DNA from: a virus
IMG/VR virus record: IMGVR_UViG_3300045988_089680
Coordinates: 1-64,000 of that record
Length of the DNA: 64,000 nt
Strand: one strand, 5' to 3'
A program made the position numbers and the translations under genes. Each line of letters starts with the position of its first letter. Positions within the stretch are counted from its first letter, which is position 1. The notes below the pieces were generated by a model. The model was not told where the DNA came from and did no database searches. It saw only the letters and a list, made by a program, of their open reading frames with translations. Positions 6,330 through 63,930 of this stretch are shown piece by piece.

Positions 6330-6346
6330 GTTATATGCCGTTTTCT
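6305..6346 (+). terminator. intrinsic terminator
   Basis: Perfect 12-bp stem, aacggcatataa / ttatatgccgtt, followed by TTTT. Confidence 0.6.
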
Positions 6347-6353
6347 ATACCTT

Positions 6354-6577
6354 CTAAGCTTGTCAAATATTCTCTCCATATACTTACACGTATTTTCATA
6401 ATCAGCGTGTCACAGCGAAAAACATACACTTACATTACTCCTTAGTCTAAAAGTTAGCTAAAGTTAAATTATTGATAATCAGTAAATTACGAGTTTATAA
6501 ATTTGGTCAATTCACAAAAAATGACTACCTTTGCAATAGATAATTAAAACAATAACAACTTAAAGATAAGAGCAATG
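6354..6577 (+). repeat. 224-bp regulatory/leader repeat, copy A (includes a promoter: TTTG at 6502-6505, TAccTTTG at 6526-6533)
   Basis: About 88% identical by eye to 16508-16732. It ends at the ATG of the downstream gene. Confidence 0.75.
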
Positions 6578-7726
6578 AATACGATTAAAACATTTATCCC
6601 ATCAGAATCAGTAGACGCATTCAAGAGGTTTGCTGATAAGACACGTAAGAACGTAAAAGACTTCGCTTACTCACTAGGTAAGCCTTATGAGAAGTTGTTT
6701 TATCATCCTGTAATCAATAAAGATGGAATTGGTGGACATAAAATCAAGGCATTCCATGAAGTATGTGACCTCACAATCAACATACCAGAGCAGAGCGGTT
6801 GGAAACTCCTTGCTACATACAAGGATGATGCTTTTACTCCTGCCGACCCGACCAAGGAACTTATCTTCAAGAACCATCAACACGGAGCAGACTACGGAAA
6901 ATGTGACTTTTGCGGTCATTGGTGCAAGAATGCCTATGTCGTTGAAAATGTGAAGACGGGCGAGGAATTACAAGTAGGTTGCGAATGTATCAAGAAGTTT
7001 GGTATCAATGATATGTACTACATATCCGACTTCACCAAAAAGCTCTATGAACTCTATGATTACAGGGGCAGTAATGCTACCGATGATGAGTTTGGTGACA
7101 TCGAGAAATGGGGCGGCAGAAAGGATTCAAGCTACAAGAATGCTATCCTTAAAACGAACCTCATCATGGCTGCCAAGGCTCAGTACGATATTTGCCCAGT
7201 CTATAAGAAAGGAACGAAAGTTGAACATGTCAGTTACCGCTCGGCAACTTTGGAGGGTATCGACACCATCTTGAATAGCGGTAAGTTAAAGGTGGATGAA
7301 GCTTACGTGAAGGCGGTTTGCGAGTTCGGTGCAAAGATTCAACCTAAGACCGAGTTTGAAGAAGATATGCTTGCCGTAGCAAAGAACTTCTATTGTTATC
7401 AAGCTCAAGAGGTCTATGCCTTCTTCCTAGTCAAAGCTTATGAAGATAGCTTGAAGCCAGAGTTGAACCTTCCGAAAGGATGCCAAGTTAAGGTGTGTGG
7501 CAAGGTCATTCAGAAGCGTTTCGAGGAGTCTTACTACGGAATGATGGAAATCAACACCATTCTTACTGACAAGGGTGTTACCTGTGAACGCTACGGAAAG
7601 GTACCTACCACCGAAGATAAGCGCACTTCATTCTACGCACTTGTAAAAGGGGTATTCAATGGAAAGGTTAGCCTAGACAGAGCTACCAAGAATCCTAAGA
7701 AAGGAATAGAAGTAATAAACATATAA
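6575..7726 (+). CDS. hypothetical protein with a Cys cluster (CDFCGHWC...GCEC)
   Basis: 383-aa ORF. Its start lies in the AAGAGCAATG context. Confidence 0.55.
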   Translation: MNTIKTFIPSESVDAFKRFADKTRKNVKDFAYSLGKPYEKLFYHPVINKDGIGGHKIKAFHEVCDLTINIPEQSGWKLLATYKDDAFTPADPTKELIFKNHQHGADYGKCDFCGHWCKNAYVVENVKTGEELQVGCECIKKFGINDMYYISDFTKKLYELYDYRGSNATDDEFGDIEKWGGRKDSSYKNAILKTNLIMAAKAQYDICPVYKKGTKVEHVSYRSATLEGIDTILNSGKLKVDEAYVKAVCEFGAKIQPKTEFEEDMLAVAKNFYCYQAQEVYAFFLVKAYEDSLKPELNLPKGCQVKVCGKVIQKRFEESYYGMMEINTILTDKGVTCERYGKVPTTEDKRTSFYALVKGVFNGKVSLDRATKNPKKGIEVINI

Positions 7727-8332: not shown

Positions 8333-8427
8333 TATGAAAACTCTCTCAGAATTAGTAGAAAACAAAGGCCACGTATTAGAGGACGGACAAGGCCTTCATT
8401 ATAACGACATTTAAAAGACAAAGAGCA

Positions 8428-8604
8428 ATGGTAAAGAGAATCTATAAAATAGAAGTCCAAGAGATTCTGTCACGTACGATAGAAATTGAATCATCTACAG
8501 CTAAATCTGCAAGAGAAAAGGTTGAAGAAATGTATCGTAATCAAGAAATAATTCTTGGCGGAGACGATTTCAAGGAGAAAAGTATAAAAATAGTATTAGG
8601 GTAG
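8428..8604 (+). CDS. small DpnD/PcfM-like protein (below the ORF-track cutoff)
   Basis: 58-aa ORF that I translated by hand: MVKRIYKIEVQEILSRTIEIESSTAKSAREKVEEMYRNQEIILGGDDFKEKSIKIVLG. Its start lies in the AAGAGCAATG context. Confidence 0.45.
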   Translation: MVKRIYKIEVQEILSRTIEIESSTAKSAREKVEEMYRNQEIILGGDDFKEKSIKIVLG

Positions 8605-8620
8605 AAATTTCTACGCTTTC

Positions 8621-8660
8621 TATTTGTTATTCAAATAATTTTAAGTATATTTGCAAAAAG
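8621..8660 (+). promoter_or_regulatory. conserved 40-bp promoter module, copy 2
   Basis: Sequence tatTTGttattcaaataattttaagTAtaTTTGcaaaaag. Confidence 0.6.
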
Positions 8661-9147: not shown

Positions 9148-9220
9148 GCGGAGATAGCTCAGTTAGCAGAGCGCAATGTGTCCATCATTGAGGTCGTTGG
9201 TGCAGTTCCAACTCTCCGCT
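9148..9220 (+). tRNA. atypical tRNA-Gly(UCC)-like gene
   Basis: Cloverleaf folded by hand. The acceptor stem is gcggaga/tctccgc, the anticodon stem caatg/cattg with loop tgTCCat, and the T stem gttgg/ccaac. Discriminator is T. Non-canonical features are G at position 33, a D loop lacking GG, and a T loop TGCAGTT instead of TTCRANT. Confidence 0.55.
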
Positions 9221-9235
9221 CTAAATACTAAGAGC

Positions 9236-14398: not shown

Positions 14399-14803
14399 AT
14401 GAGTAAACGAGGATATTACGAATACAACCCTGTTATTTATCCACGGATATTATGCGTCGCGATTGGAATGAACCAAGAAGATGCAAATAAATGCTTTGAA
14501 GGTAGAAATGATGAAATACTGATGGTTGACTTCAGAAACTCTGATGCACTTACTTTCGATAGCGTAATTCAGAAAAAAGATGGAAAATATGCCGTGTTTG
14601 TAAACTTTGCAAATAAGTCTGCAATGACTATGGGTATTTGCTGCCATGAGGCAAGTCATGTTTGTGATGCGATAGAAGAAGATATTGGCATGAAACACGG
14701 GGGTGAGCCATCTGCCTATCTTATTGGTTGGATATCCTCATGTATCAACAAGGCTCGTTTGGGCATTGGTGATTTCGTAGAGATTAAGGATAGAGAAAAA
14801 TAA
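14399..14803 (+). CDS. small HExxH metallopeptidase-like protein
   Basis: 134 aa with CCHEASHVCDAIEEDIG...GEPSAYLIGW. A paralog is at 46911-47327. Confidence 0.5.
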   Translation: MSKRGYYEYNPVIYPRILCVAIGMNQEDANKCFEGRNDEILMVDFRNSDALTFDSVIQKKDGKYAVFVNFANKSAMTMGICCHEASHVCDAIEEDIGMKHGGEPSAYLIGWISSCINKARLGIGDFVEIKDREK

Positions 14804-14816
14804 TATTATAAAGAAG

Positions 14817-16331
14817 ATGTTTGAACAGAAGGCTAAAAAGAAAATGATTGCATGGCGCAATGATTGGTGTCTCTTCGCCAAAGAAGTCTTGAAGGCTCAC
14901 CTTGACGAAGAGCAAAAGGCTATATTGCGTTCTGTTCAAAAGAATAAAATGACAACGGTAGCCAGTGGAACTGCAAGGGGTAAGGATTACATCGCTGCCG
15001 TAGCTGCTTTATGTTTCCTCTACCTCACTCCTCGCTTTGGTAAGGATGGCAGTTTGGAAAAGAATACCAAGATTGCCCTTACGGCGCCGACAGGAAGACA
15101 GGTAACAAACATCATGATTCCAGAGGTAGCACGTTTATACAAGAAGGCCGGCTTTCTTCCCGGTCGTTTGTTGGCGGATGGTATCAGAACCAATTATGAG
15201 GAATGGTATTTGACTGGTTTCAAGTCTTCCGACGACAACATAGAGGCATGGTCGGGATTTCACGCAGTAAACACCATGTTCATCGTAACCGAAGCTTCGG
15301 GTATCTCAGATACCATCTATAATGCAATCGAAGGTAACCTACAGGGAAACTCTCGATTGCTATTGGTATTCAACCCTAACGTTACAACGGGATATGCAGC
15401 CAATTCCATGAAGTCTCCTCGTTTCAAGAAGTTCAGACTATCATCCCTTAACGCAGAGAATGTAGTCAGAAAAAAAATTATTATTCCTGGTCAAGTTGAC
15501 TATGAATGGGTAGCTGACAAGGTCTCAGCATGGGCACAGAAAATCAGAAAGTCTGAGTTTGATGAAGGTCGTGGCGACTTTATTTGGGAAGGAGGCTATT
15601 ATACTCCCAACGACCTCTTCCGCGTTAAGGTTCTCGGTATATTCCCGAAGGTTTCAGAAGATACTCTCATCCCTTACGAATGGTGTGAGATTGCACATAA
15701 ACGATGGGAAGAGCTCAAAGAAAGTGGATTCATCACCCATAAACCAGTACGCTTAGGTGTCGATGTAGCGGGTATGGGTCGCGATAGGTCTTGCTTCATT
15801 CCAAGACAAGGGAATTATGTATCAGAAATAAGATGTCATAACTCAGGAGGAAGGGCAGATCACATGGCAGTCGCAGGTCAAGTAGCTAACTATCTTAAAA
15901 CGGATCACCGTAACAAGGCATTCATTGATACAATAGGTGAGGGAGCGGGTGTTTACTCACGATTGATAGAACAGAATATACTAACAGCATTCTCCTGTAA
16001 GTTTTCTGAAGGAGTGAGAAACAAACATGATGTCACTGGTTGTTACACATTCGCTAATATGAGAGCCTATTTATTTTGGTGTATCCGTGATTGGCTTAAT
16101 CCAAAGAATGGCTTTTTTGCAGCTCTTCCACCAGATGAAGAGTTAGACCAAGAATTGTGCGAGCCACATTGGTTCTTTCAGTCTGATGGCTCCATCATCA
16201 TAGAGCCGAAAGAAGAAATCAAAAAACGCCTCAAACGCTCTCCCGATAAGATGGACGCACTTGCTAATACATTCTATCCATATGACTATGATAAGGATAA
16301 TGATATTCAACTATTAAATAGTGTTGTATAG
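14817..16331 (+). CDS. terL: terminase large subunit
   Basis: 504 aa. Features are a Walker A-like SGTARGKD, ALTAPTGRQ, a Walker B-like FIVTEASG, and the nuclease-domain motif GVDVAGMGRDRS. Confidence 0.85.
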   Translation: MFEQKAKKKMIAWRNDWCLFAKEVLKAHLDEEQKAILRSVQKNKMTTVASGTARGKDYIAAVAALCFLYLTPRFGKDGSLEKNTKIALTAPTGRQVTNIMIPEVARLYKKAGFLPGRLLADGIRTNYEEWYLTGFKSSDDNIEAWSGFHAVNTMFIVTEASGISDTIYNAIEGNLQGNSRLLLVFNPNVTTGYAANSMKSPRFKKFRLSSLNAENVVRKKIIIPGQVDYEWVADKVSAWAQKIRKSEFDEGRGDFIWEGGYYTPNDLFRVKVLGIFPKVSEDTLIPYEWCEIAHKRWEELKESGFITHKPVRLGVDVAGMGRDRSCFIPRQGNYVSEIRCHNSGGRADHMAVAGQVANYLKTDHRNKAFIDTIGEGAGVYSRLIEQNILTAFSCKFSEGVRNKHDVTGCYTFANMRAYLFWCIRDWLNPKNGFFAALPPDEELDQELCEPHWFFQSDGSIIIEPKEEIKKRLKRSPDKMDALANTFYPYDYDKDNDIQLLNSVV

Positions 16332-16333
16332 AT

Positions 16334-16364
16334 TTTGAAAATCGGTAATAAATTTGTAACTTTG
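16334..16364 (+). promoter_or_regulatory. Bacteroidota-type promoter (TTTG-19 nt-TAacTTTG) in the terL-downstream intergenic region
   Basis: TTTG at 16334-16337 and TAACTTTG at 16357-16364, with 19-nt spacing. Confidence 0.5.
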
Positions 16365-16369
16365 CAGTC

Positions 16370-16447
16370 GAATCGTTGTTTTAATTATCTATTAAACGAT
16401 TCATTGCTCTTAGTGCATCTTGACCGTGAGGTTAGGATGCCTTTTTT
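16370..16447 (+). ncRNA. candidate ~78-nt trans-acting antisense sRNA
   Basis: Hairpin 1 is gaatcgtt(16370-77)/aacgattc(16395-402). Then comes a linker, then a terminator hairpin at 16415-16440 plus T6. Positions 16402-16420 are the exact reverse complement of agatgcactaagagcaatg (50526-50544 and 53393-53411). The loop at 16377-16394 is the exact reverse complement of 6535-6552. Confidence 0.45.
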
Positions 16448-16448
16448 A
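16415..16448 (+). terminator. intrinsic terminator
   Basis: 11-bp stem gcatcttgacc/ggttaggatgc (two G-U pairs) with a GTGA loop, followed by cTTTTTT. Confidence 0.7.
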
Positions 16449-16475
16449 TTTCCCATCATTCCCCAATTCATTACT

Positions 16476-16521
16476 CTAAAGCTTATCTAAAGCTTATCTA
16501 AGCCTATCTAAGCTTGTCTAA
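16476..16521 (+). repeat. tandem 10-11-nt repeat (ctaaagcttat x4, degenerate)
   Basis: Four head-to-tail units lie at the 5' edge of leader copy B. Copy A has a single unit. Confidence 0.7.
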
Positions 16522-16732
16522 TAAATTCTCCATATACTTACACATATTTTCATAATCGGTGTGTCACAGCGAAAAATACACACCTACATTACTCCTTGGT
16601 TTAAAAGTTAGCTAAAGTTAAACTATTGGTTATCAGTAAATTACAAGTTTTGAAATTTGGTCAATAGCAAAAAAATGACTACCTTTGCAACAGATAATTA
16701 AAACAATAACAACTTAAAGTTAAAGAGCAATG
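16508..16732 (+). repeat. 224-bp regulatory/leader repeat, copy B (includes promoter TAccTTTG)
   Basis: Aligns with 6354-6577 and ends at the ATG at 16730. Confidence 0.75.
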
Positions 16733-16993
16733 AAAAGATATTATTTGATTTCGTCGGAATATGACATTAAAAAACGTGAAGCAATCCTTAGTACTATTAA
16801 GGATAAAGCAATTGCTTCTTACGCAGACCTCTCAAATGACGAATACAATAGTTTTGCTTTCACAGAGGATGAAGGTAGAGAGGTGTATAAAAAGTTGATG
16901 CAAAAGTATCATTCAAGTGCGGCTTTCTTTGGAGATTCATACGAGGAGGAAGAAATTAAGGAAATGGGGCTTGATGAGTATATAACATTTTAA
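16730..16993 (+). CDS. hypothetical protein
   Basis: 87-aa ORF. Its start lies in the AAGAGCAATG context. Confidence 0.45.
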   Translation: MKRYYLISSEYDIKKREAILSTIKDKAIASYADLSNDEYNSFAFTEDEGREVYKKLMQKYHSSAAFFGDSYEEEEIKEMGLDEYITF

Positions 16994-17235
16994 TGTATAG
17001 AACAATGGAAAATAAAAACAACGTTTCAAAAAAGACTAAATATACAGTTTTAGCTCATACCTTCCATTCTTTTGATGAAGCTTGTGAATATGTGAACCGT
17101 ATTGTTTCCAAGGGTGCGTCTCGTATTATTCCTCCAGTTAAAGCCTGGAGGGAAGGTAAGGTAGTCGCACAATGGGAGCCAACAGTAACTAAAGATGGTA
17201 TTAGTTACAAGTCAAATGGTAATGTTAGTATTTAA
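16993..17235 (+). CDS. hypothetical protein
   Basis: 80-aa ORF. Its start overlaps the previous stop. Confidence 0.4.
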   Translation: MYRTMENKNNVSKKTKYTVLAHTFHSFDEACEYVNRIVSKGASRIIPPVKAWREGKVVAQWEPTVTKDGISYKSNGNVSI

Positions 17236-17253
17236 TTATAAAAAATAAGAGCA

Positions 17254-17523
17254 ATGAAGCAGACAATAAACGTATCAAGCAAAGCAGAGATTAAAGCAGC
17301 AGTAACAAGCCAATTCTGTAAAGGTTGTTATAATTACTTTGAAGGTGAAATTAGAAACGGAAATCGTTATGCGAGAGTATCATATTATCATACAAACAAT
17401 AAGCTTCAGATACAAGTAACATATTGGGAAGATGGAAAGGATAAAGCTGTAGACTGTGCTTCTCATTGTTCCTCACCCAGTGGATTGACCCAAAAAGTAT
17501 CTAAATTCTTGAATGTAAAATAA
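17254..17523 (+). CDS. hypothetical protein
   Basis: 89-aa ORF preceded by aaaaataagagcaatg. Confidence 0.45.
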   Translation: MKQTINVSSKAEIKAAVTSQFCKGCYNYFEGEIRNGNRYARVSYYHTNNKLQIQVTYWEDGKDKAVDCASHCSSPSGLTQKVSKFLNVK

Positions 17524-17536
17524 AAAAATAAGAGCA

Positions 17537-18211
17537 ATGGATATGATAAGTAATTTGGTTGCAGAGGAAAAACCAGAATATAAGATAAAGGAAAGTGGAG
17601 ATTTTTCATCACTTACATCAGTTGAATTATTAGCAATATTGTTTGGCAAGAGTTCGACATCAACTCTTCAAAAGGCAAGGGGTATTCTTAATCTAACAGA
17701 TGGTAGTATAAGAGGTATCTCTAAACTTACTACGAAACAGATAAGAGAAGTAACGAATTTCACAGAACAAAAGGCTAATGCTGTCCTTGCAGCATGCGAA
17801 CTTGGACGAAGAGCGCAAATAGAAGAATCCAATAATATCAACCTCGGTAGTGCATATGGCATATACAACTTCATGAAGCCACGAATAGGTAGATTAGACC
17901 ATGAAGAAGTTTGGGTAATGCTAATGGATAACGCCTTTAATCTAAAGAAGGTAAAAAAGATAAGCAGCGGAGGACTTACAGAAACTGCATTTGATGTGCG
18001 TGTTATTTTAAAAGAAGCACTTCTCAATAATTCTACAGTGATAGCCGTTGCACATAATCATCCAAGTGGTAATAAAAGACCAAGCAAAGATGATGATGGA
18101 GTAACACGGAAGCTACAACAAGCATGTGACACCATGAGAATAAAACTGATAGACCATGTAATCGTAACAGATTTAGGTTATTATAGTTTCTCAGAAGAAG
18201 GTAAACTATAA
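17537..18211 (+). CDS. radC: RadC-like JAB/MPN-domain protein
   Basis: JAMM motif AVAHNHPSGNKRPSKDD, plus an N-terminal helix-hairpin-helix-like region. Confidence 0.75.
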   Translation: MDMISNLVAEEKPEYKIKESGDFSSLTSVELLAILFGKSSTSTLQKARGILNLTDGSIRGISKLTTKQIREVTNFTEQKANAVLAACELGRRAQIEESNNINLGSAYGIYNFMKPRIGRLDHEEVWVMLMDNAFNLKKVKKISSGGLTETAFDVRVILKEALLNNSTVIAVAHNHPSGNKRPSKDDDGVTRKLQQACDTMRIKLIDHVIVTDLGYYSFSEEGKL

Positions 18212-18240
18212 TTCTCTAGAACAGCAAATTTTCTTCAAAA

Positions 18241-18280
18241 AATGTTTGCTATTCAAATATTTTTAAGTATATTTGCAAAC
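18241..18280 (+). promoter_or_regulatory. conserved 40-bp promoter module, copy 3 (head operon)
   Basis: Sequence aatgTTTGctattcaaatatttttaagTAtaTTTGcaaac. Confidence 0.6.
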
Positions 18281-18294
18281 AAAAGCGTGTGAAG

Positions 18295-23194: not shown

Positions 23195-23304
23195 ACCCAA
23201 GTAGCTCAGTTGGTTAGATTGCGAGACCAAATCCTGTCCTGTAAAATCCAGTTGGTCTTTAAAAAGATGGTTGAGAGACGCAGGTTCGAGTCCTGCCTTG
23301 GGTG
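23195..23304 (+). ncRNA. 110-nt aberrant tRNA-like element
   Basis: Perfect acceptor stem acccaag/cttgggt, a canonical 5' D region tagctcagttggtta, and a canonical T arm gcagg-TTCGAGT-cctgc. The middle 60 nt contain no 5-bp/7-nt anticodon arm (I checked every register). Instead there is a 7-bp stem agaccaa/ttggtct with a 21-nt loop. Confidence 0.4.
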
Positions 23305-47596: not shown

Positions 47597-47737
47597 TATA
47601 TTAATATTGAGTTAATGAATAGTTAAATCCTTTGTCTTAGCTGTTCTAAGCTTGTATAAAATCCCCATCATATACATATACACATTTTAGAAAATATACG
47701 TTTACATAGAAAAACTACATTTAGACCAAACGCTATC

Positions 47738-48991
47738 CTATTTATCCTCGTTTATATCAAGTATATAATCTATTACCTTACGATTTGCATCGTCTATTTT
47801 TTTTCGATTAAAATTGATATACACTTGTGTAACAGCAGCTCCTGTCGAATAAGAATGTCCAAGAGCACGACTTATAACATCTTCTGGTATATCAAGTTCG
47901 CTTGCCAATGTAGCCCATGTATGCCTTGCCCAGTATGATGATAGACGAGGGAACAAAGGTGTGTACTCCTTGATGAATTTATGGCGATGCGTTTTTGAAA
48001 ATTTCGGGTTTTGAATTATAACGCATTTCCCTACTCTTTTAAGCTGATAGTCAAAACTACCTATAAAAGATTGTGTAGTCTTATATCTTTCTAAGATGTC
48101 TAGTAAGTACTCGTTGCCTTTGTATCGATTTATTATCTCAAGTGCTTCTGGTTCTACTTTTATAGAATACAACTTTTTGGTCTTCCGGCGTCTGTAGTTA
48201 ATTCTACCTTGACTATCTATTTCTCTCAATTCGCACAAATCAGCAATGTTAATGCCAATTAGATATATACATAACTTAAATAAGTCTATAGTTCGCTGTA
48301 GATGAGGATCGGCTACTGCAAACAATGACCTAACCTCATCTAAAGTTAAAGAGCGTTTTACTGTCTGTTCCGTTTTAATCTTAAACACACGAAAAGGATA
48401 ATTCTGAGTAATCTCGTTATCTAAAGCATCATTGAAAACAGCTCTAATACTACGAAAATGCATGTTACGTCCATTTATAGTAGGAGAATACCTCCGTAGG
48501 AAAATGTCAAATCCGGTAAGCCAGTCTTTTGTTATGTTTTCAAATGTTTTTGACTTAATATGATTGTCATACTCTAACATCTTCTTTGCTGTTAATAAAT
48601 ATATCTTTTTTGTTCGCATTGCAGAACGAGAGTTCGCAAAAGAAAGAAAACGATTATAGAAACTGTTAGACGCAGCAACAGCAGGATCCAGCATTTCTTG
48701 CACTTTATTTTTTATTTGTGTTGCTGTCAGTTTTGTTAATTTTCCATCCTTGGTTAAATCCATGATTATATTAGACACTTTATTGCGTAGAGTGTCTATA
48801 TAACTTTGAAGAGCTTTCTTATTAGGATGGTCTTTAATACGTTCTTTTTCTGCATCCCATTGAGTGGGATATATTCTCACATTCAAAGATATATAAGCAG
48901 AAGACCCCTTCTTATTTATGCCGATTTTAAGAGGAGCTTCTTCACCACGCTTTACTGAACGCTTATCTAAATATAAATGTACTGTTGCCAT
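47738..48991 (-). CDS. int: tyrosine recombinase/integrase (Bacteroidota Arm-domain type)
   Basis: 417 aa. The N-terminal Arm-type beta domain reads VHLYLDKRS...PLKIGINKKG. The C-terminal catalytic motifs are ARHTWAT, LGHS and VYI. Confidence 0.85.
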   Translation of the reverse strand: MATVHLYLDKRSVKRGEEAPLKIGINKKGSSAYISLNVRIYPTQWDAEKERIKDHPNKKALQSYIDTLRNKVSNIIMDLTKDGKLTKLTATQIKNKVQEMLDPAVAASNSFYNRFLSFANSRSAMRTKKIYLLTAKKMLEYDNHIKSKTFENITKDWLTGFDIFLRRYSPTINGRNMHFRSIRAVFNDALDNEITQNYPFRVFKIKTEQTVKRSLTLDEVRSLFAVADPHLQRTIDLFKLCIYLIGINIADLCELREIDSQGRINYRRRKTKKLYSIKVEPEALEIINRYKGNEYLLDILERYKTTQSFIGSFDYQLKRVGKCVIIQNPKFSKTHRHKFIKEYTPLFPRLSSYWARHTWATLASELDIPEDVISRALGHSYSTGAAVTQVYINFNRKKIDDANRKVIDYILDINEDK

Positions 48992-49009
48992 AGTTTATCG
49001 TGTAGAAAT

Positions 49010-49070
49010 ATTTGCGGTTTATTTGCGGTTTATTTGCGGTTTATTTGTGGTTTATTTGCGGTTTATTTTA
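49010..49070. repeat. 11-bp tandem repeat (tatttgcggtt x5 plus a partial unit)
   Basis: Located directly upstream of the int start codon. Further atttgcggt-like copies lie at 49283-49307. Confidence 0.85.
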
Positions 49071-49323
49071 CCCACATTTACTCAAAAATAATTAAGAATA
49101 ATGTCTTTATATGCCTGTGGCGGCCAAGCCTATCTGTCTGACTTTCAAGCTATAACTCTTGCCTCTATCCGATTCTATCTTCAACGTGCTATGTGCCTCT
49201 ATAATAGGTTTTATGCATTGTATGGGAGTATAAATTTTTGAACCAAGTAACTGATATTCACCACTTTACAAAAGATTACCATTGCAATTGCGGTGTATTT
49301 GCGGTTTTTTCGTGTTTGGCACC

Positions 49324-50319
49324 TTATAATGATGCTGCCATTTTGAAAGCTGATATAATACGAGCCCTCATATTGTATAGAGAATCTATATTGTCAATCT
49401 GTATCCATTCGTTGGTCTTGTAGGAATCAACAGGGAAGCAAATCTTAATAGAAGAACTACGCTTCGACTTTACTCGAATAATCCATCTCCAGACAGAACC
49501 ACCTTGGTTGACAGTAAAATATGACTTGAACTTCTTGTATTGTATTTCTGAGCATTTATCTTTCAGAACATCTTTTACAATCTCGTATGCTCTTAACTCA
49601 ATTCTGTTTATTATAGGAGTCTCGTCAGTTTGAGGAGGTGTAGGTATAAAATCATTCATTAATGACTTTATTGTACTTTTGTAAACAGAATGTAAAGATT
49701 TATCATATCCTTCTCCGAGGGCAGACTTGGTCGCATATTCTACGAAATCATCACTCGGACACATTATGTTGTTATTGATAAAATCAGAAAGCATATGTCT
49801 TAGTCTTATCTCTGTGAACCTTTCTATTATTTTTAGCTCGTCTAAGCTGTTTTTAGAGAACAACCCTAATAATTCTATACCTACAGAATCACAATTGTTC
49901 ATATCGAAAATAAAGAACGGTTTAGCATCCATTAAGTTTGTCTTATCAAAATCAGCAAAGAACCAATACTCAATACCGTTAGTTAAAACTGCAAAACGTG
50001 CGTTAGTAGCTACATAATATTTAGATAGTTGTGGGACAAACGGGGCAAGTTCTTTTGAGCATTGCTTACATTCGACTATCATCACTGGCTCTTCGTCCTT
50101 GAAAATAGCATAATCCACCCTATCACCTTTGTTGGATATGTCGCATGGCATTTCTGGTACAACCTCCAAGGGATTGTACACATCATAGCCCAAAGACAGC
50201 AATAACGGCAACACAAAAGCGTTCTTTGTGGCTTCCTCCGTGCCGATATGGTCTTTCATCTTTTCTATCTTTGTTGATAGATTATCTAAATTTTCTGTTA
50301 AGTTCATTGCCCTATACAT
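49324..50319 (-). CDS. HsdR_N-like PD-(D/E)xK nuclease-domain protein with an unknown C-terminal half
   Basis: EEATKNAFVLPLLLSLGY...DRVDYAIF...IVECK...FAVLTNGIEYWFF matches the type I restriction R-subunit N-terminal (HSDR_N) module. Confidence 0.55.
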   Translation of the reverse strand: MYRAMNLTENLDNLSTKIEKMKDHIGTEEATKNAFVLPLLLSLGYDVYNPLEVVPEMPCDISNKGDRVDYAIFKDEEPVMIVECKQCSKELAPFVPQLSKYYVATNARFAVLTNGIEYWFFADFDKTNLMDAKPFFIFDMNNCDSVGIELLGLFSKNSLDELKIIERFTEIRLRHMLSDFINNNIMCPSDDFVEYATKSALGEGYDKSLHSVYKSTIKSLMNDFIPTPPQTDETPIINRIELRAYEIVKDVLKDKCSEIQYKKFKSYFTVNQGGSVWRWIIRVKSKRSSSIKICFPVDSYKTNEWIQIDNIDSLYNMRARIISAFKMAASL

Positions 50320-50442: not shown

Positions 50443-50522
50443 GATATGCAAATATATTGTAATGTCGGTATTGTTTTTAGTTAAATGTACTAAGAGCAAT
50501 TAAAAACATAAAGAAAACGGAT

Positions 50523-50780
50523 ATGAGATGCACTAAGAGCAATGGGTCGTCTACTTCTATATTGAAGAGAACCGCAATTTATGGACTTTTAAACTTGTGG
50601 AAACAAGACATAGGTTGGAATAGAAAAACAAGAAAGGAGAAGAAAATCATCGTGTGGTTCATCCTTTCGTTTATAGTTATGGCTATAACGTTTGCAAGCA
50701 TTCTGACCCTTCCTGCTGTAGTCAACTTTCTTATGGCAAACAATGCAATGAATAGAAATAAAATAGAAGTGGAGGAATAG
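50523..50780 (+). CDS. hypothetical membrane protein
   Basis: 85 aa with one TM segment. Codons 2-7 are covered by the 20-mer gagatgcactaagagcaatg. Confidence 0.4.
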   Translation: MRCTKSNGSSTSILKRTAIYGLLNLWKQDIGWNRKTRKEKKIIVWFILSFIVMAITFASILTLPAVVNFLMANNAMNRNKIEVEE

Positions 50781-52027: not shown

Positions 52028-52327
52028 TTATTTCAGCTTCGGTATAAGAGCTTCGAGGTCTTCTATAGAAGATGCGGAATACAGATTGTTACCTTTCTTT
52101 ATTAAAGCGGTGAAGTCAGAAGAACTGGATAGTAAGGGTTGAGCAATCTCGTCTTCAAAGAACTCGTTAATATTAGCACCAATTATATCGGCTATTTTCC
52201 GCAAGTAGCTAACTTGCGGATTTCCCTTGCATATTTGGTTCGCAAGAGACCCACGCAATATCCCCATTTCTTTAGCGACCGTAGCTAAATCATACCCATG
52301 TTTGCGTATAATCTTTGATATTTCCAT
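52028..52327 (-). CDS. XRE-family HTH repressor (CI-like)
   Basis: Motif DLATVAKEMGILRGSLANQICKGNPQVSYLRKIADIIGANINEFF. I chose the internal M (MEISK) as the start. Confidence 0.6.
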   Translation of the reverse strand: MEISKIIRKHGYDLATVAKEMGILRGSLANQICKGNPQVSYLRKIADIIGANINEFFEDEIAQPLLSSSSDFTALIKKGNNLYSASSIEDLEALIPKLK

Positions 52328-52571
52328 ATATAATCTATTTAAATGATGTTCTAACAATGCAAAGTTAACTATAAAACCCGAACAACCAAAACAATACACA
52401 AAAAATAACTTATACACGTTATAGGTTAGCAAAAGTTAATCTACGTAGATTATATATAAGGTAAAGTTAAATATCATTTATATAGAGTATATATATGACA
52501 AAATCTTTGCTCATATCATTTATTTAGATTATCTTTGCAATATCAAATAAAACAAATAAACAATATAAGAT

Positions 52572-53067: not shown

Positions 53068-53403
53068 ATGAGTACTACAAGAAAGAATCAGTTGAAGAAG
53101 GTCATGCAACTCGCCTGGCAGTTCGTCAAGAAAAACGGCTACACTCTCTCGGTAGCCTTGAAGATAGCTTGGGCAAATATAAAACTCCACACTGCAATGC
53201 AGACACGAATCGTTAAGTTCTACTTTCAGAAGGTGGACGGAACAATCAGAGAAGCGTTCGGTACGCTTAAATCATCCATCCTCCCTCCAACCAAGGAGAG
53301 CGGACGAACACCGAACCCAACCTGCCAAGTCTACTACGACACAGAAAAAGAAGCATACAGAAGTTTTAAGAAAGCAAATCTCGTAAGAGTAGAGATGCAC
53401 TAA
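53068..53403 (+). CDS. DUF2693-like (SH3-like barrel) protein
   Basis: Motif VKFYFQKVDGTIREAFGTL...YYDTEKEAYRSF. Confidence 0.4.
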   Translation: MSTTRKNQLKKVMQLAWQFVKKNGYTLSVALKIAWANIKLHTAMQTRIVKFYFQKVDGTIREAFGTLKSSILPPTKESGRTPNPTCQVYYDTEKEAYRSFKKANLVRVEMH

Positions 53404-53535
53404 GAGCAATGAAATAAGAATAGAAAAAGAAAGTAAGAGGGTGCGAGCGAGCACACACTAAGAGCAATGAATTATAGATAGATAGTTAAGCAACGGTTCA
53501 CAAAAATAGAAGTTAAACCATAAATAGTAACAAAA

Positions 53536-53708: not shown

Positions 53709-54197
53709 ATGGAAGAAAAAGAAATCATGCTCACACCCTCAGTAAACAAGGACGGAATGACCTCACTCGAAATTGCAGAGGTCACGGGTAAAGAACACTA
53801 TCACGTTATGAGAGACATTCGCAGCCTTTTGGAACAAGGCGTATCACAATCCAACTTTGGTTTCTCATCGTATCAGCAACCGCAACCGAATGGTGGTTAC
53901 AAGGAAGTACCCATGTACAACCTCACTCCAAAAGGCTGCTTGATACTTGCAAGCGGTTATAACGCTGTTCTTCGAGAGAAGATGATCGACCGCTTGTTTG
54001 AGTTGGAAGCCAAGGAGCGACAGTTCAAGCCACTTTCGGCATACCCCATGCTCACCACAGAGCGCAAGAAAGCCGAGGAGTTAATGAGCAACACCTCTAT
54101 GGAAGTGTTGGAGGACGCATCACTACTCATAGAGAATCATATCTTGAGAAGGAAACTCCAAGAAGCTGGTATTGAGTATAAAGAACGTGTCTTTTAA
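53709..54197 (+). CDS. Rha-family phage regulatory protein
   Basis: MTSLEIAEVTGKEHYHVMRDIRSLL...VPMYNLTPKGCLILASGYN matches the Phage_pRha pattern. Confidence 0.65.
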   Translation: MEEKEIMLTPSVNKDGMTSLEIAEVTGKEHYHVMRDIRSLLEQGVSQSNFGFSSYQQPQPNGGYKEVPMYNLTPKGCLILASGYNAVLREKMIDRLFELEAKERQFKPLSAYPMLTTERKKAEELMSNTSMEVLEDASLLIENHILRRKLQEAGIEYKERVF

Positions 54198-54610: not shown

Positions 54611-54915
54611 ATTTCCAAATGGGCACACAAAAGGCACACGCAAACAACTAAATATCAACGACTTACGTAAGGTCTGATTTTAAAATGGGCACACAAAGGG
54701 CACACGGTGGGCACGCCAAGGGCAAACCTAACACCTTAAATATCAATAACTTATAGAATATCAGATTTTAGAATGGGCACACCAACTTTAAAAAGTGGCA
54801 AGATTTTTAAGTCTCCCAAATTTCCAAATGGGCACACAAAGGGCACACGCAAACAACTAAATATCAACGACTTACGTAAGGTCTGATTTTAAAATGGGCA
54901 CACAAAGGGCACACG
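54611..54915. repeat. iteron array (putative replication origin): a 96-bp direct repeat (54611-54706 and 54820-54915) containing five AATGGGCACAC iterons
   Basis: The two 96-bp copies differ at one position. ATGGGCACAC occurs at about 54619, 54685, 54773, 54828 and 54894. Confidence 0.6.
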
Positions 54916-54926
54916 CCTTTCGCAGA

Positions 54927-55005
54927 CAATAATAATATAGAATATATATAGTTAATTATATATATTATTATATTATTTATTATTAGCTATTACGCGTGCG
55001 CGCGA
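54927..55005. other. AT-rich palindromic tract followed by a CG clamp (candidate DNA unwinding element)
   Basis: About 65 bp that are almost pure A/T and contain inverted aatatatata/tatatatatt, followed by acgcgtgcgcgcga. Confidence 0.5.
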
Positions 55006-56407: not shown

Positions 56408-56644
56408 ATGGCAAACAACAATGACACAAAATGTGTAGATATGACCCTAAAGGGTTATTACGAAAATCTACCAAAGGCGACTTATCCTAAAAAGGATTTT
56501 CTCGCACGTGTGATGATTGAGTGCGATGTCTCTTTCACCACCGCCAACAACTGGGTAAAAGGTCATACAAAACCTGTGAAGCAAAGTCAGATTTCGGCAC
56601 TTAGTAAAATAACTGGCATACCAGAAGAGAATCTATGGCAATAG
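56408..56644 (+). CDS. Cro-like small HTH protein
   Basis: 78 aa, divergent from the repressor-like gene. Motif FLARVMIECDVSFTTANNWVKG. Confidence 0.45.
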   Translation: MANNNDTKCVDMTLKGYYENLPKATYPKKDFLARVMIECDVSFTTANNWVKGHTKPVKQSQISALSKITGIPEENLWQ

Positions 56645-57195
56645 AGTTTTATCAATATAACGATGAACTTTGGTTCAAAACCAACGATGGAAGAAATCAG
56701 GTTTTTACAGAACATGATTCTGAAATCATTCAGAAGTTAATAGATGCAATCCGTGAACGTTATCCCTCTGCATATAAGGCCCTTGAACTTGAATATCAGA
56801 AGAGTTCACTAAATGCACCATATTACCAGTATTTGATAGTGAGAAGGTTCTGTAAATGCAATTTCGGAAAACTCGAAACAACATCTTACGATATAGAATC
56901 TTCTGGAAAATTCAACTTCGAGAAAGTAGAATGTCCGTTACGCGGTGAATGTAAGAATGAAGGTGTAATATGTTGCCCACGCTTTAATTCTAAGCTCTCA
57001 GAGGCAGAGCTAAGAGTTATGAGACTCGTTTACGAAGGTGTTAGTAAGGACGAAATATCAACACGTTTGTTCATAGCACCGAACACTATTAAGAATCACA
57101 TCAAATCAGTATATCTGAAATTAGGCATCCATGACCAAATTGAGTTTGTGAGATATGCAAACGATAATAATTTGTTTAACGATTTAAAGCACTAA
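56635..57195 (+). CDS. LuxR/GerE-type HTH transcriptional regulator with an N-terminal Cys-rich region
   Basis: Motif SEAELRVMRLVYEGVSKDEISTRLFIAPNTIKNHIKSVYLKLG. Confidence 0.6.
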   Translation: MAIEFYQYNDELWFKTNDGRNQVFTEHDSEIIQKLIDAIRERYPSAYKALELEYQKSSLNAPYYQYLIVRRFCKCNFGKLETTSYDIESSGKFNFEKVECPLRGECKNEGVICCPRFNSKLSEAELRVMRLVYEGVSKDEISTRLFIAPNTIKNHIKSVYLKLGIHDQIEFVRYANDNNLFNDLKH

Positions 57196-57200
57196 GAGCA

Positions 57201-58154
57201 ATGAGTATGATTAAAAGAAGCAATGAGATTACTATTTCGAAGAATGTTAAAATGATGGTTTACGGACAGGCTGGTATGGGTAAGACAACTTTCGCCCTCT
57301 CTGCACCTAAGCCTTTGTTGCTTGACTTTGATAATGGTGTCAAGCGTGTTAATACAGCACATTTGGATGATAGCGTAGGTATCGTTCAGATTGATAGTTG
57401 GCAAGACGTGATGAATTTGCTGAACTACAACAAGAATGACTTGGCAGAGTTCGATACCATCGTAGTAGACACCATCGGAAAGATGATAGACTACATCATT
57501 CAATATCGCTGCAACGGTCGCAACCCGCAGATTCAAGACTGGGGAACTATTAACAATGACTTCAAGTGGTTTACTTCGTCCCTCTCATCACTTAACAAGA
57601 ATATTGTATTTGTTGCACATCGTGACACTCGCAAGGAAGGGGAAAGCACAGTATTCATTCCTGCGCTCCGTGAGAAGAACTACAATAGTATCGTAACTGA
57701 CTTGGACCTTCTTGGCTATCTCGAAATGAGAAGTGAGAATGGTCGTCAGATGAGAACTATCACTTTTGACCCGACAAGCCGAAACGACGGAAAGAATACA
57801 TGTCAGCTTCCTGGTTGTATGCAGATACCAGTAATCCTTGATGCAAACGGACAGCCAACAGCCCCGAACAACTTCATCGCCACTCAGATTCTCTCACGTT
57901 ATCAGTCTATGATAGCACAGAAGGAGAAAAAGGTTAAGGAGTACAATAAGGCTCTTGACGAAATAAAAGAAAGCGTACAATTGATTACAGATGCACAAGG
58001 AGCTAACCATTTCATCGGGCACATCAAAGATTATGCAAACTTGGGCAACTCAGTAATTCTTCATGCAAGAAGTCTGTTCACCGAGAAGGCCAGTGCACTG
58101 AAGTTGGTTTACAATAAGGAGACCAAGCAATACGAGGACCCACAAGAAGCATAA
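57201..58154 (+). CDS. Sak4-like/AAA_24 RecA-fold ATPase
   Basis: Motif MMVYGQAGMGKTTFAL..PLLLDFDNG. Its start lies in the CACTAAGAGCAATG context. Confidence 0.6.
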   Translation: MSMIKRSNEITISKNVKMMVYGQAGMGKTTFALSAPKPLLLDFDNGVKRVNTAHLDDSVGIVQIDSWQDVMNLLNYNKNDLAEFDTIVVDTIGKMIDYIIQYRCNGRNPQIQDWGTINNDFKWFTSSLSSLNKNIVFVAHRDTRKEGESTVFIPALREKNYNSIVTDLDLLGYLEMRSENGRQMRTITFDPTSRNDGKNTCQLPGCMQIPVILDANGQPTAPNNFIATQILSRYQSMIAQKEKKVKEYNKALDEIKESVQLITDAQGANHFIGHIKDYANLGNSVILHARSLFTEKASALKLVYNKETKQYEDPQEA

Positions 58155-63860: not shown

Positions 63861-63890
63861 TGATAGTCTAAGATTTTTTATCCTTGGAAA

Positions 63891-63930
63891 TATTGGTCAT
63901 TCAAATACTTTTAACTATCTTTGCAAACAA
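63891..63930 (+). promoter_or_regulatory. conserved 40-bp promoter module, copy 4
   Basis: Sequence tattggtcattcaaatacttttaacTAtcTTTGcaaacaa. Confidence 0.55.

Follow-up and report, generated by a model that had tools for sequence, protein, structure and literature searches.

Antisense RNAs are already known as a kind of phage regulator. The closest functional likeness to the case described here appears to be the c4 RNA (immI) of phages P1 and P7, a trans-acting structured phage RNA of ~77 nt that represses icd/ant, its exposed segments covering the initiation region and thereby controlling how much antirepressor is made (PMC8546580, which cites Citron & Schuster 1992). In its logic, the case seems most similar to the T4 protein RegA, which competes with ribosomes at ~30 early mRNA initiation regions and whose operators overlap the AUG and often an upstream UAA (PMC3014915). 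The stoperators of Cluster A mycobacteriophages are asymmetric 13-14-bp motifs that are repeated many times across the genome with a single orientation, usually where one gene borders on the next (PMC9283540). Here, we analyzed a 64,000-nucleotide stretch of virus DNA (positions 1 to 64,000 of IMG/VR record IMGVR_UViG_3300045988_089680; hereafter the window, to which all coordinates refer), which carries directly after terL a predicted small RNA (sRNA) gene whose linker is antisense to a short box repeated in the same genome. The family itself is undescribed and widespread, and a self-targeting regulon is plausible. A literature search gave no account of the element, nor of any sRNA of a Bacteroidota phage, and Rfam contains no sRNA described for a Bacteroidota phage.

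The predicted sRNA resembles c4 in that two of its strong pairing sites lie upstream of a Rha/Ant-like gene, and in that one clade has two pairing segments, one in a loop and one in the linker. However, c4 is processed from the operon of its target and sets immunity specificity, in which P1 and P7 differ, whereas the sRNA has its own promoter and terminator, lies 34-41 kb from its strongest sites, has many predicted targets and carries an invariant seed. No sequence or Rfam relationship between the sRNA and c4 was found. As with RegA, the proposed role is the shut-off of a box-defined set of genes at their initiation regions, but RegA is a protein with degenerate A/U-rich operators, while the repressor proposed here is an RNA and the box a near-invariant 10-15-mer. 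Stoperators are DNA sites for an immunity repressor and have no antisense RNA, in contrast to the present case, in which an inverted copy lies in a structured RNA gene and no binding protein is known. Enterobacterial prophage sRNAs mainly target host mRNAs through short imperfect seeds and depend on Hfq. Unlike these, the sRNA has its recognizable targets among the phage's own genes, matches them exactly over 10-21 nt and belongs to a phage of a host phylum that is not known to have Hfq. It is like DicF (Qin) and lambda PreS (bioRxiv 10.1101/2024.10.31.621285) in being a small terminator-ended phage or prophage RNA that is predicted to pair near start codons.

A Conserved Structured RNA Is Predicted Directly Downstream of terL

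A terL-based search of IMG/VR yielded 80 related loci, and a scan with a covariance model and the seed gave 14 further copies, some of them in human-microbiome samples (L-numbers such as L001 denote related loci). The element lies directly 3' of terL in all 80 relatives with a terL identity of at least 73% and also takes this position in the 14 additional contigs, whose terL identity is 63-72%. Altogether, about 100 relatives carry it, in 27 distinct variants, and it is present in every relative whose terL identity is about 63% or higher. Since the element was also found in two Prevotella metagenome-assembled genomes, the host genus is Prevotella. The phage is temperate and encodes an integrase (47741-48991, minus strand) and an HTH repressor-like protein (52031-52432).

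In the gap behind terL, the first-pass annotation had recognized a Bacteroidota promoter that is followed by a hairpin of 8 bp and, beyond a linker, by an 11-bp terminator with a GTGA loop and six T residues. The promoter boxes and the 19-nt spacer were found where it had put them, and folding reproduced the two hairpins and the linker (Table 1). The TTTG of the promoter begins 3 nt past the terL stop codon. The strict pattern TTTG-N19-21-TAnnTTTG occurs 9 times in the window versus 1.6 expected, mostly before plus-strand genes, and both promoter boxes are kept in all relatives (TTTG and TA(A/G)(C/T)TTTG), with a spacer sequence that differs between clades. The linker between the hairpins reads CAUUGCUCUUAGUG, and its always-unpaired seed part, CAUUGCUCUU, is the antisense of AAGAGCAAUG. 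The fold of 16366-16450 has a free energy of -26 kcal/mol (z = -4.6), and none of 200 shuffled sequences was as stable. The element thus has what is generally expected of a stand-alone sRNA, namely its own promoter and a Rho-independent terminator around a non-coding unit of 50-300 nt, and a conserved, covarying structure with a conserved unpaired seed. The terL operon probably shares the terminator, and the seed may therefore also lie in the 3' untranslated region (UTR) of terL.

Across the 27 variants, 96.7% of the helix cells are paired and 12 of the 17 base pairs show changes on both sides. None of 500 shuffles matched the observed covariation, and sliding the partners by 1-3 columns lowered the pairing to 26-52%. 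In hairpin 1, four of seven pairs changed on both sides; in the terminator stem, eight of ten did, and a single G·U pair never changes. Among the variants, a number of U·G pairs are frequent. As these invariant G·U and the U·G pairs would be A·C on the other strand, the structure is that of a plus-strand transcript. The linker ATTGCTCTTAGTG is identical in all variants except for a C>T change in L011 and a CC>TT change in L070, both of which keep G·U pairing with the box. The seed is therefore not only unpaired but, across terL lineages down to 63% identity, also the most conserved part of the element, while the stems turn over. Hairpin 1 has a loop of 4-7 nt in most relatives and a long loop only in the clade of the window. 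Hence, the discrete plus-strand RNA gene that had been proposed gains strong support from the retained promoter, the covarying pairs, the strand-specific G·U pairs and the invariant seed. We consider it highly probable that 16365-16447 is a conserved structured RNA gene, and very likely that the undescribed phage sRNA family is real.

The covariance model scores the element of the window at 86 bits. At the gathering thresholds of Rfam 15, a scan of the whole window returned only a tRNA at 23195-23304 and no family for the sRNA, and a permissive Rfam scan of 16200-16800 listed only SNORD89 (15.7 bits, against a threshold of 41) and BTnc201 (14.9 bits, against one of 105), both at E-values of 3.5-8.8. 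The sRNA resembles the BTnc sRNAs of Bacteroides (Rfam 15) in host phylum, promoter type and intrinsic terminator. However, it has no homology to these families (14.9 versus 105 bits for BTnc201), is phage-borne and linked to terL, and has predicted targets in its own genome. Bacteroides sRNAs such as GibS target initiation regions through single-stranded seeds without Shine-Dalgarno (SD) pairing.

A coding function was considered and rejected: neither a 51-aa open reading frame (ORF) with a TTG start (16335-16490) nor a 7-codon minus-strand ORF is conserved, and loop indels shift the frame. Because of an 11-nt loop indel between clades, there is no conserved ORF. Paralogues of the sRNA with other seeds were likewise rejected, as the weaker matches of the covariance model were ordinary terminators with a GTGA(G/A)G-type loop. 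Ordinary terminators of this phage group have a stereotyped form, in which the stem is rich in G+C, the loop region reads GTGA(G/A)G and the 3' arm carries an A/TAG bulge, as seen in the early regions of L262, L302, L308-L313, L316, L319 and L320, and it is because of this form that the model weakly detects them. One contig of 53.7 kb (IMGVR_UViG_3300045988_113792; L004 and L070) contains two terL-sRNA units, with terL genes 93% and 82% identical to that of the window, and may represent tandem phages or a chimeric assembly. The CC>TT seed belongs to the second of these units, around which no start-codon box lies within 10 kb.

A search of INPHARED with 14800-17600 found a single unannotated fecal contig, which matched the cassette region and not the sRNA. 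In a 14-mer scan of viral contigs, chance matches dominated among the matches listed.

The Seed Is Antisense to a Repeated Box

An exact reverse complement of the region 16402-16420 is present at 50526-50544 and again at 53393-53411. When up to three mismatches were allowed, five matches to its complement were obtained versus 0.02 expected. Perfect pairing with 53393-53413 extends over 21 nt, and pairing with 50526-50553 over 28 nt at 89%; the first six nucleotides of the terminator (GCATCT) lengthen the pairing with these two sites. The complementarities listed in the first-pass annotation were all recovered, that is, besides the 19- and 21-nt matches, 17 nt at 53456-53472, 16 nt at 57189-57204 and 10-14 nt across the ATGs at 6575, 8428, 16730, 17254 and 17537.

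The 10-mer box AAGAGCAATG has 12 exact copies in the window, 11 on the plus strand and one on the minus strand, and the sole minus-strand copy is the sRNA gene itself. With up to one mismatch, 20 matches were found versus 7.6 expected, a number reached by none of 100 shuffles. In a crude census of 89 gene starts, the exact box is present at six and a single-mismatch box at none. The same census showed an A-rich context and no SD signal, in line with the earlier proposal of a host clade that does not use SD-based initiation, the host being Prevotella. The notion of a motif repeated at start codons is thus borne out for the six genes with an exact 10-mer, but not for the ATGs at 50542, 53409 and 53467, which open ORFs of just 7, 2 and 4 codons, respectively, and are therefore not gene starts. 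At 53401 and 57193, the TAA within the box is the stop codon of the upstream gene.

A sliding duplex-energy scan identified only five sites far above the genome background, all of them in the early region, with minima at 53386 (-35.3 kcal/mol), 50521 (-33.8), 57181 (-28.7), 53446 (-25.2) and 50476 (-23.5), while the strongest non-self duplex on the control strand was about -21.5 kcal/mol. Among these sites, those at 50483, 53393 and 53456 are off start codons, that at 50526 lies just inside an ORF and that at 57189 is the start of a Sak4-like gene. The proposal that many initiation regions are targeted therefore holds in part: the Sak4 start is among the strong sites, but only five sites exceed the background and three of them are away from start codons.

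Such a distribution would also be expected if the box were the operator of a phage protein, either a stoperator-type DNA roadblock or a RegA-like RNA operator, with the inverted copy being incidental or one more site. The box is an asymmetric 10-15-mer with many copies in one orientation relative to transcription (11 plus-strand copies versus one on the minus strand), shares bases with stop and start codons and is arranged in tandem pairs behind an early promoter. These traits are hallmarks of stoperators (PMC9283540), and the operators of T4 RegA likewise overlap AUG and UAA (PMC3014915). Yet with a protein operator there would be no reason for the single inverted copy to be found, without exception, in the unpaired linker between two covarying hairpins of an RNA that has its own conserved promoter and terminator, and an RNA-binding protein would not recognize the complement. 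Furthermore, immunity operators normally diverge between phages, whereas the box is unchanged between clades with different early regions, and there is neither a regulator common to all clades nor a candidate binding protein conserved across them, the WYL_2 gene being confined to the clade of the window and L070. We therefore regard a protein operator as unlikely and favor an antisense RNA as the partner of the box.

The RNA and the Box Occur Together

Plus-strand boxes were found within 10 kb in 79 of the 80 terL loci that carry the sRNA (median 4), while all eight terL relatives without the sRNA (48-61% identity) also lack the box. In five of the sRNA-less loci, those with a clear downstream reading, terL runs directly into the portal gene. 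The RNA locus and the motif had been expected to co-vary in related phages if the one acts on the other, and they do; no relative that keeps the motif without an antisense copy was found among the eight RNA-less terL loci. Divergent sRNA-box pairs in distant terL relatives were considered and dismissed, as terL abuts the portal gene and both elements are absent.

Predicted Targets in the Early Region

The strong site at 50526 corresponds to codons 2-7 of an 85-aa membrane-protein ORF (50523-50780), the gene that comes first behind an early rightward promoter. In the main clade of relatives (L260, MGCTKSN...), this ORF is kept with its 'M-x-CTKSN' start and the box. The site at 53393-53413 takes in the stop codon that ends the WYL_2 gene (53068-53403) and is located upstream of a Rha/Ant-like gene (53709-54197). 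At 57189-57204, pairing spans both the stop codon of a LuxR/GerE-type regulator gene and the Sak4-like ATG at 57201, which agrees with the earlier claim that the Sak4-like start codon is covered. In relatives with a protein identity down to 63-72%, the box at the Sak4 start is kept while its flanks change. By means of the Sak4-like protein, we gathered 69 early-region loci, in which all matches to the 12-mer CTAAGAGCAATG (at most one mismatch) are on the plus strand.

Pairing ends at 15 nt in the main clade, where GATGCACTAAGAGCAATA in the leader sites faces GCACTC in the sRNA. Besides the clade of the window, to which the longer pairing is otherwise confined, only L070 has a matching extension. 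Because the leader copies of the main clade end in CAATAA, the core of the box is (TGCAC)TAAGAGCAAT rather than the ATG itself. The few substitutions in the targets are mostly wobble-compatible, but with ~4 independent changes they are too few to be informative. Main-clade targets that read GAGTGCAC... and would thus match GCACTC were sought with an exact-pattern scan, which returned only copies of the sRNA.

The 19-21-nt matches at the first early ORF (50526) and upstream of the Rha/Ant-like gene (53393) are of the kind seen with the immunity RNAs P1 c4, P22 sar and P4 CI. However, the RNA lies next to terL and its seed is identical in phages with different early leaders. As it is not part of the targeted operon and its seed does not diverge, the sRNA falls outside this class.

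Two side observations concern the strong sites. A seed-like segment ATTGTTTTTAGT at 50470-50481 pairs in cis with the box at 50483 in a 12-bp hairpin with two G·U pairs; this hairpin (50470-50501) may be a local switch and is present in the window and L259 and absent from the main clade. A cis switch in the early leader was accordingly rejected as a general explanation, since the anti-box hairpin is confined to the clade of the window. The WYL_2 protein belongs to PF10902 and has an Sm-like SH3 barrel, and the last codons and the stop codon of its gene lie within the strongest target site; a function as RNA-binding partner would be pure speculation.

Table 1. Coordinates of terL, the predicted sRNA gene and its candidate pairing sites in the window.
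Feature	Position	Strand	Remarks
terL	14817-16331	+	stop codon 16329-16331
Bacteroidota-type promoter	16334-16364	+	-33 TTTG 16334-37, 19-nt spacer, -7 TAACTTTG 16357-64
Predicted sRNA transcript, ~78-83 nt	16365-16447	+	5' end inferred; 3' end is the T-run
Hairpin 1	16370-77/16395-402	+	8-bp stem, 17-nt loop
Antisense loop segment	16376-16393	+	predicted to pair with the 5' end of the cassette leader
Single-stranded seed CATTGCTCTTAGTG	16402-16415	+	unpaired in minimum-free-energy and centroid folds
Intrinsic terminator	16415-16447	+	11-bp stem (16415-16440), GTGA loop, T6
Predicted target 1	50526-50544	+	19-nt exact complement, -33.8 kcal/mol
Degenerate second box copy, same early leader	50483-50501	+	-23.5 kcal/mol
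Predicted target 2	53393-53413	+	21-nt perfect complement, -35.3 kcal/mol
Predicted target 3	53456-53472	+	17-nt complement, -25.2 kcal/mol; same intergenic region as 53393; no gene start
Predicted target 4	57189-57204	+	16-nt complement, -28.7 kcal/mol
Phage regulator gene	56635-57195		
Cassette leader A	6535-6580	+	5' block 6535-6552 complementary to loop; box TAAGAGCAATGAAT 6567-6580 complementary to seed; gene 6575-7726
Cassette leader B	16692-16734	+	15-nt loop match 16692-16706; box AAGAGCAATGAA; gene 16730-16993
Box at start of ORF 8428-8604	8421-8430	+	
Box at start of gene 17254-17523	17246-17258	+	
Box at start of RadC-like JAB gene 17537-18211	17529-17539	+	

The Box in the Cassettes Downstream of terL

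The sRNA is followed directly by leader B. In 17 of 21 representative relatives, the ORF that comes next after the sRNA bears a box, with unrelated products of 58-118 aa, and each box-bearing cassette ORF is preceded by a conserved promoter of its own (TTTGG...gACTACCTTTgCA) and by an A-rich leader. As unrelated ORFs share the promoter, the leader and the box, the locus is a hypervariable cassette array with a constant 5' UTR that ends in the box, and the promoter-leader-box unit looks like a plug-in expression module for accessory genes. The cassette promoter, the leader and the AAGAGCAATG start were also seen in L237, L239, L257 and L335-L339.

The earlier claim that the loop of hairpin 1 is complementary to 6535-6552 (18 nt, 100%) and to 15 nt of repeat B was reproduced, but the exact 18-nt complement, although real, belongs to a single clade. 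The window, L001, L002, L003, L061 and L075 alone have the long loop, and all of them carry the leader. Since L339 has the leader together with a short loop, the leader is older than the long loop. The 18-nt loop segment complementary to the cassette leader is thus best seen as a gain of the window's clade.

The position of the element raises the possibility that it acts in cis, with the anti-box in the terL 3' UTR masking the box of the next cassette 110-350 nt downstream in read-through RNA, so that the cassette would be translated only from its own promoter. The start of the element 3 nt past terL and the box in the first downstream ORF of most representative relatives are in favor of this. 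However, a dedicated consensus promoter lies between terL and the hairpins in every variant, a strong terminator and a separate cassette promoter divide the anti-box from the box, and L214 retains the RNA without a box-bearing cassette behind it. Action in cis also does not explain the far stronger complementarity to sites 34-41 kb away, and we consider it improbable.

The constant promoter, leader and box fused to non-homologous ORFs are also what would be seen if box and leader were a portable expression unit and recombination boundary, the antisense copies being functionless relics of inverted duplications and the RNA doing something else or nothing. The window indeed holds two 217-nt repeats, A (6353-6569) and B (16507-16723), that are 89% identical, and the long loop resembles an inserted inverted piece of the older leader, as present in L339. 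A relic would decay, yet down to 63% terL identity no part of the element is as conserved as the seed, and the stems vary freely. Moreover, boxes also occur away from cassette boundaries, in the first codons of the early ORF and, in distant relatives, at the Sak4 start. This explanation has, in our view, as little to recommend it as action in cis. Taken together, a protein operator, action in cis and a relic all fit poorly with the conservation of the promoter, the covariation in the hairpins and a seed that does not vary, and we retain a trans-acting antisense RNA as the preferred reading.

A conserved partner protein was ruled out, as the downstream ORFs are non-homologous and the WYL_2 gene occurs in two clades only. 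Because the adjacent ORFs are not homologous between relatives, there is no conserved toxin partner gene either, in contrast to what a type I toxin-antitoxin system would have. A 10-11-nt unit (TCTAAAGCTTA) is repeated 4.5 times in tandem at 16475-16521, in the stretch that separates repeat B from the sRNA terminator; these repeats occur only in the clade of the window, and related sequence is found at 6340-6396 and 47632-47688.

Proposed Mode of Action

The best-supported mechanism, which we hold to be somewhat more probable than all else, is that of a trans-acting antisense sRNA that occludes initiation regions. Host RNA polymerase would transcribe an RNA of ~80 nt from the promoter directly after terL, and the sRNA's own terminator would end the transcript. 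The seed CAUUGCUCUU(AGUG) would then pair in trans with the box (CACU)AAGAGCAAUG at or near the initiation codons of a target set comprising the first ORF of the early operon, the Sak4-like recombinase gene and the hypervariable accessory cassettes that share promoter and leader. By pairing within the footprint of the ribosome, the sRNA would prevent initiation in a host without SD pairing. The 15-21-bp duplexes predicted for the first ORF of the early operon, for the region upstream of the Rha/Ant-like gene and for the Sak4-like start could also trigger cleavage, and those of 19-21 bp could create substrates for double-strand RNases. The role might be to shut off early and accessory genes when late (terL) transcription is high, or to silence leaky expression in lysogens. 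Late accumulation and constitutive synthesis in the lysogen are both possible because of the position at the end of the terL operon and the strong host-type promoter. Transcription, pairing in trans, repression and timing are steps that we infer from the sequence.

Several points weigh against this mechanism. To our knowledge, Bacteroidota have neither Hfq nor ProQ, and no chaperone was identified. The bias of the box toward one orientation and its overlap with stop and start codons would fit a protein operator as well, and as the box sits at mosaic junctions between constant leaders and variable ORFs, translation efficiency or recombination could help to conserve it. Its invariance across phages with different early regions argues against a classical role in immunity specificity. 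The duplex energies of the plain 10-nt sites are within the genomic background; despite this, the 10-nt start-codon boxes are a discrete class of predicted sites. Some relatives with 71% Sak4 identity have no box at the gene start, and in the main clade the extension that gives 19-21 nt in the window (AGATGC/GCATCT) is unpaired, leaving 15 nt. Finally, no compensatory covariation between seed and targets was found, because seed and box never vary.

More tentatively, and with rather less confidence than in the occlusion of initiation regions as such, the sRNA could be viewed as the RNA counterpart of T4 RegA in a temperate Prevotella phage lineage. Seed and start-codon box would then define a phage-wide translational regulon, any accessory or anti-defence cassette inserted behind the promoter, leader and box would automatically come under the control of the sRNA, and the tandem boxes that lie away from start codons in early leaders would set the timing by serving as sponges or for processing.

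Little is understood of how Bacteroidota and their phages control genes after transcription, in a phylum that is not known to have SD-led initiation, Hfq or ProQ. The element offers a testable case, with an RNA of ~80 nt, an invariant seed of 10-15 nt, exact target matches and about 100 natural variants that define the tolerated changes, and it is a candidate for a new Rfam family. If the proposed mechanism is true, it would amount to RNA-based timing or silencing of early and accessory phage genes in a major genus of the human gut, would explain the motif repeated at gene starts and could provide a compact, portable translational off-switch (box plus sRNA) for the engineering of Prevotella and Bacteroides.

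Other Features of the Window

Divergent from the early promoter, the minus-strand gene at 49327-50319 encodes a 331-aa protein with a type I restriction HSDR_N (PD-(D/E)XK-like) domain, which is no classical repressor. In the main clade, the early promoter overlaps a long palindrome (TATCTTTGCA...TGCAAAGATA, L260 1318-1358). The integrase gene is adjoined by 5.5 tandem copies of TATTTGCGGTT at 49009-49068, with a degenerate copy near 49271-49317; these repeats may serve as arm-type sites or bind a regulator. A candidate replication origin separates the Rha/Ant module from a leftward gene block: three direct repeats of ~96 nt (54611-54915), two of them with 99% identity, contain many GGGCACAC(A/G)AA iterons, and AT-rich tandem repeats (54929-54983) come next.

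With regard to tRNAs, ARAGORN called a tRNA-Gly(TCC) at 9148-9221 that is missing from the Rfam gathering scan. Conversely, the 110-nt Rfam tRNA match at 23195-23304 (36 bits) was not called by ARAGORN and is possibly intron-containing or aberrant. Promoter-like repeats of 43 nt (TTTG..TATTCAAATA..TATATTTGCAAA) are located at 2368-2410, 8618-8660, 18240-18282 and 63888-63930. They are distinct from the cassette promoter, which suggests a separate temporal class of transcription units.

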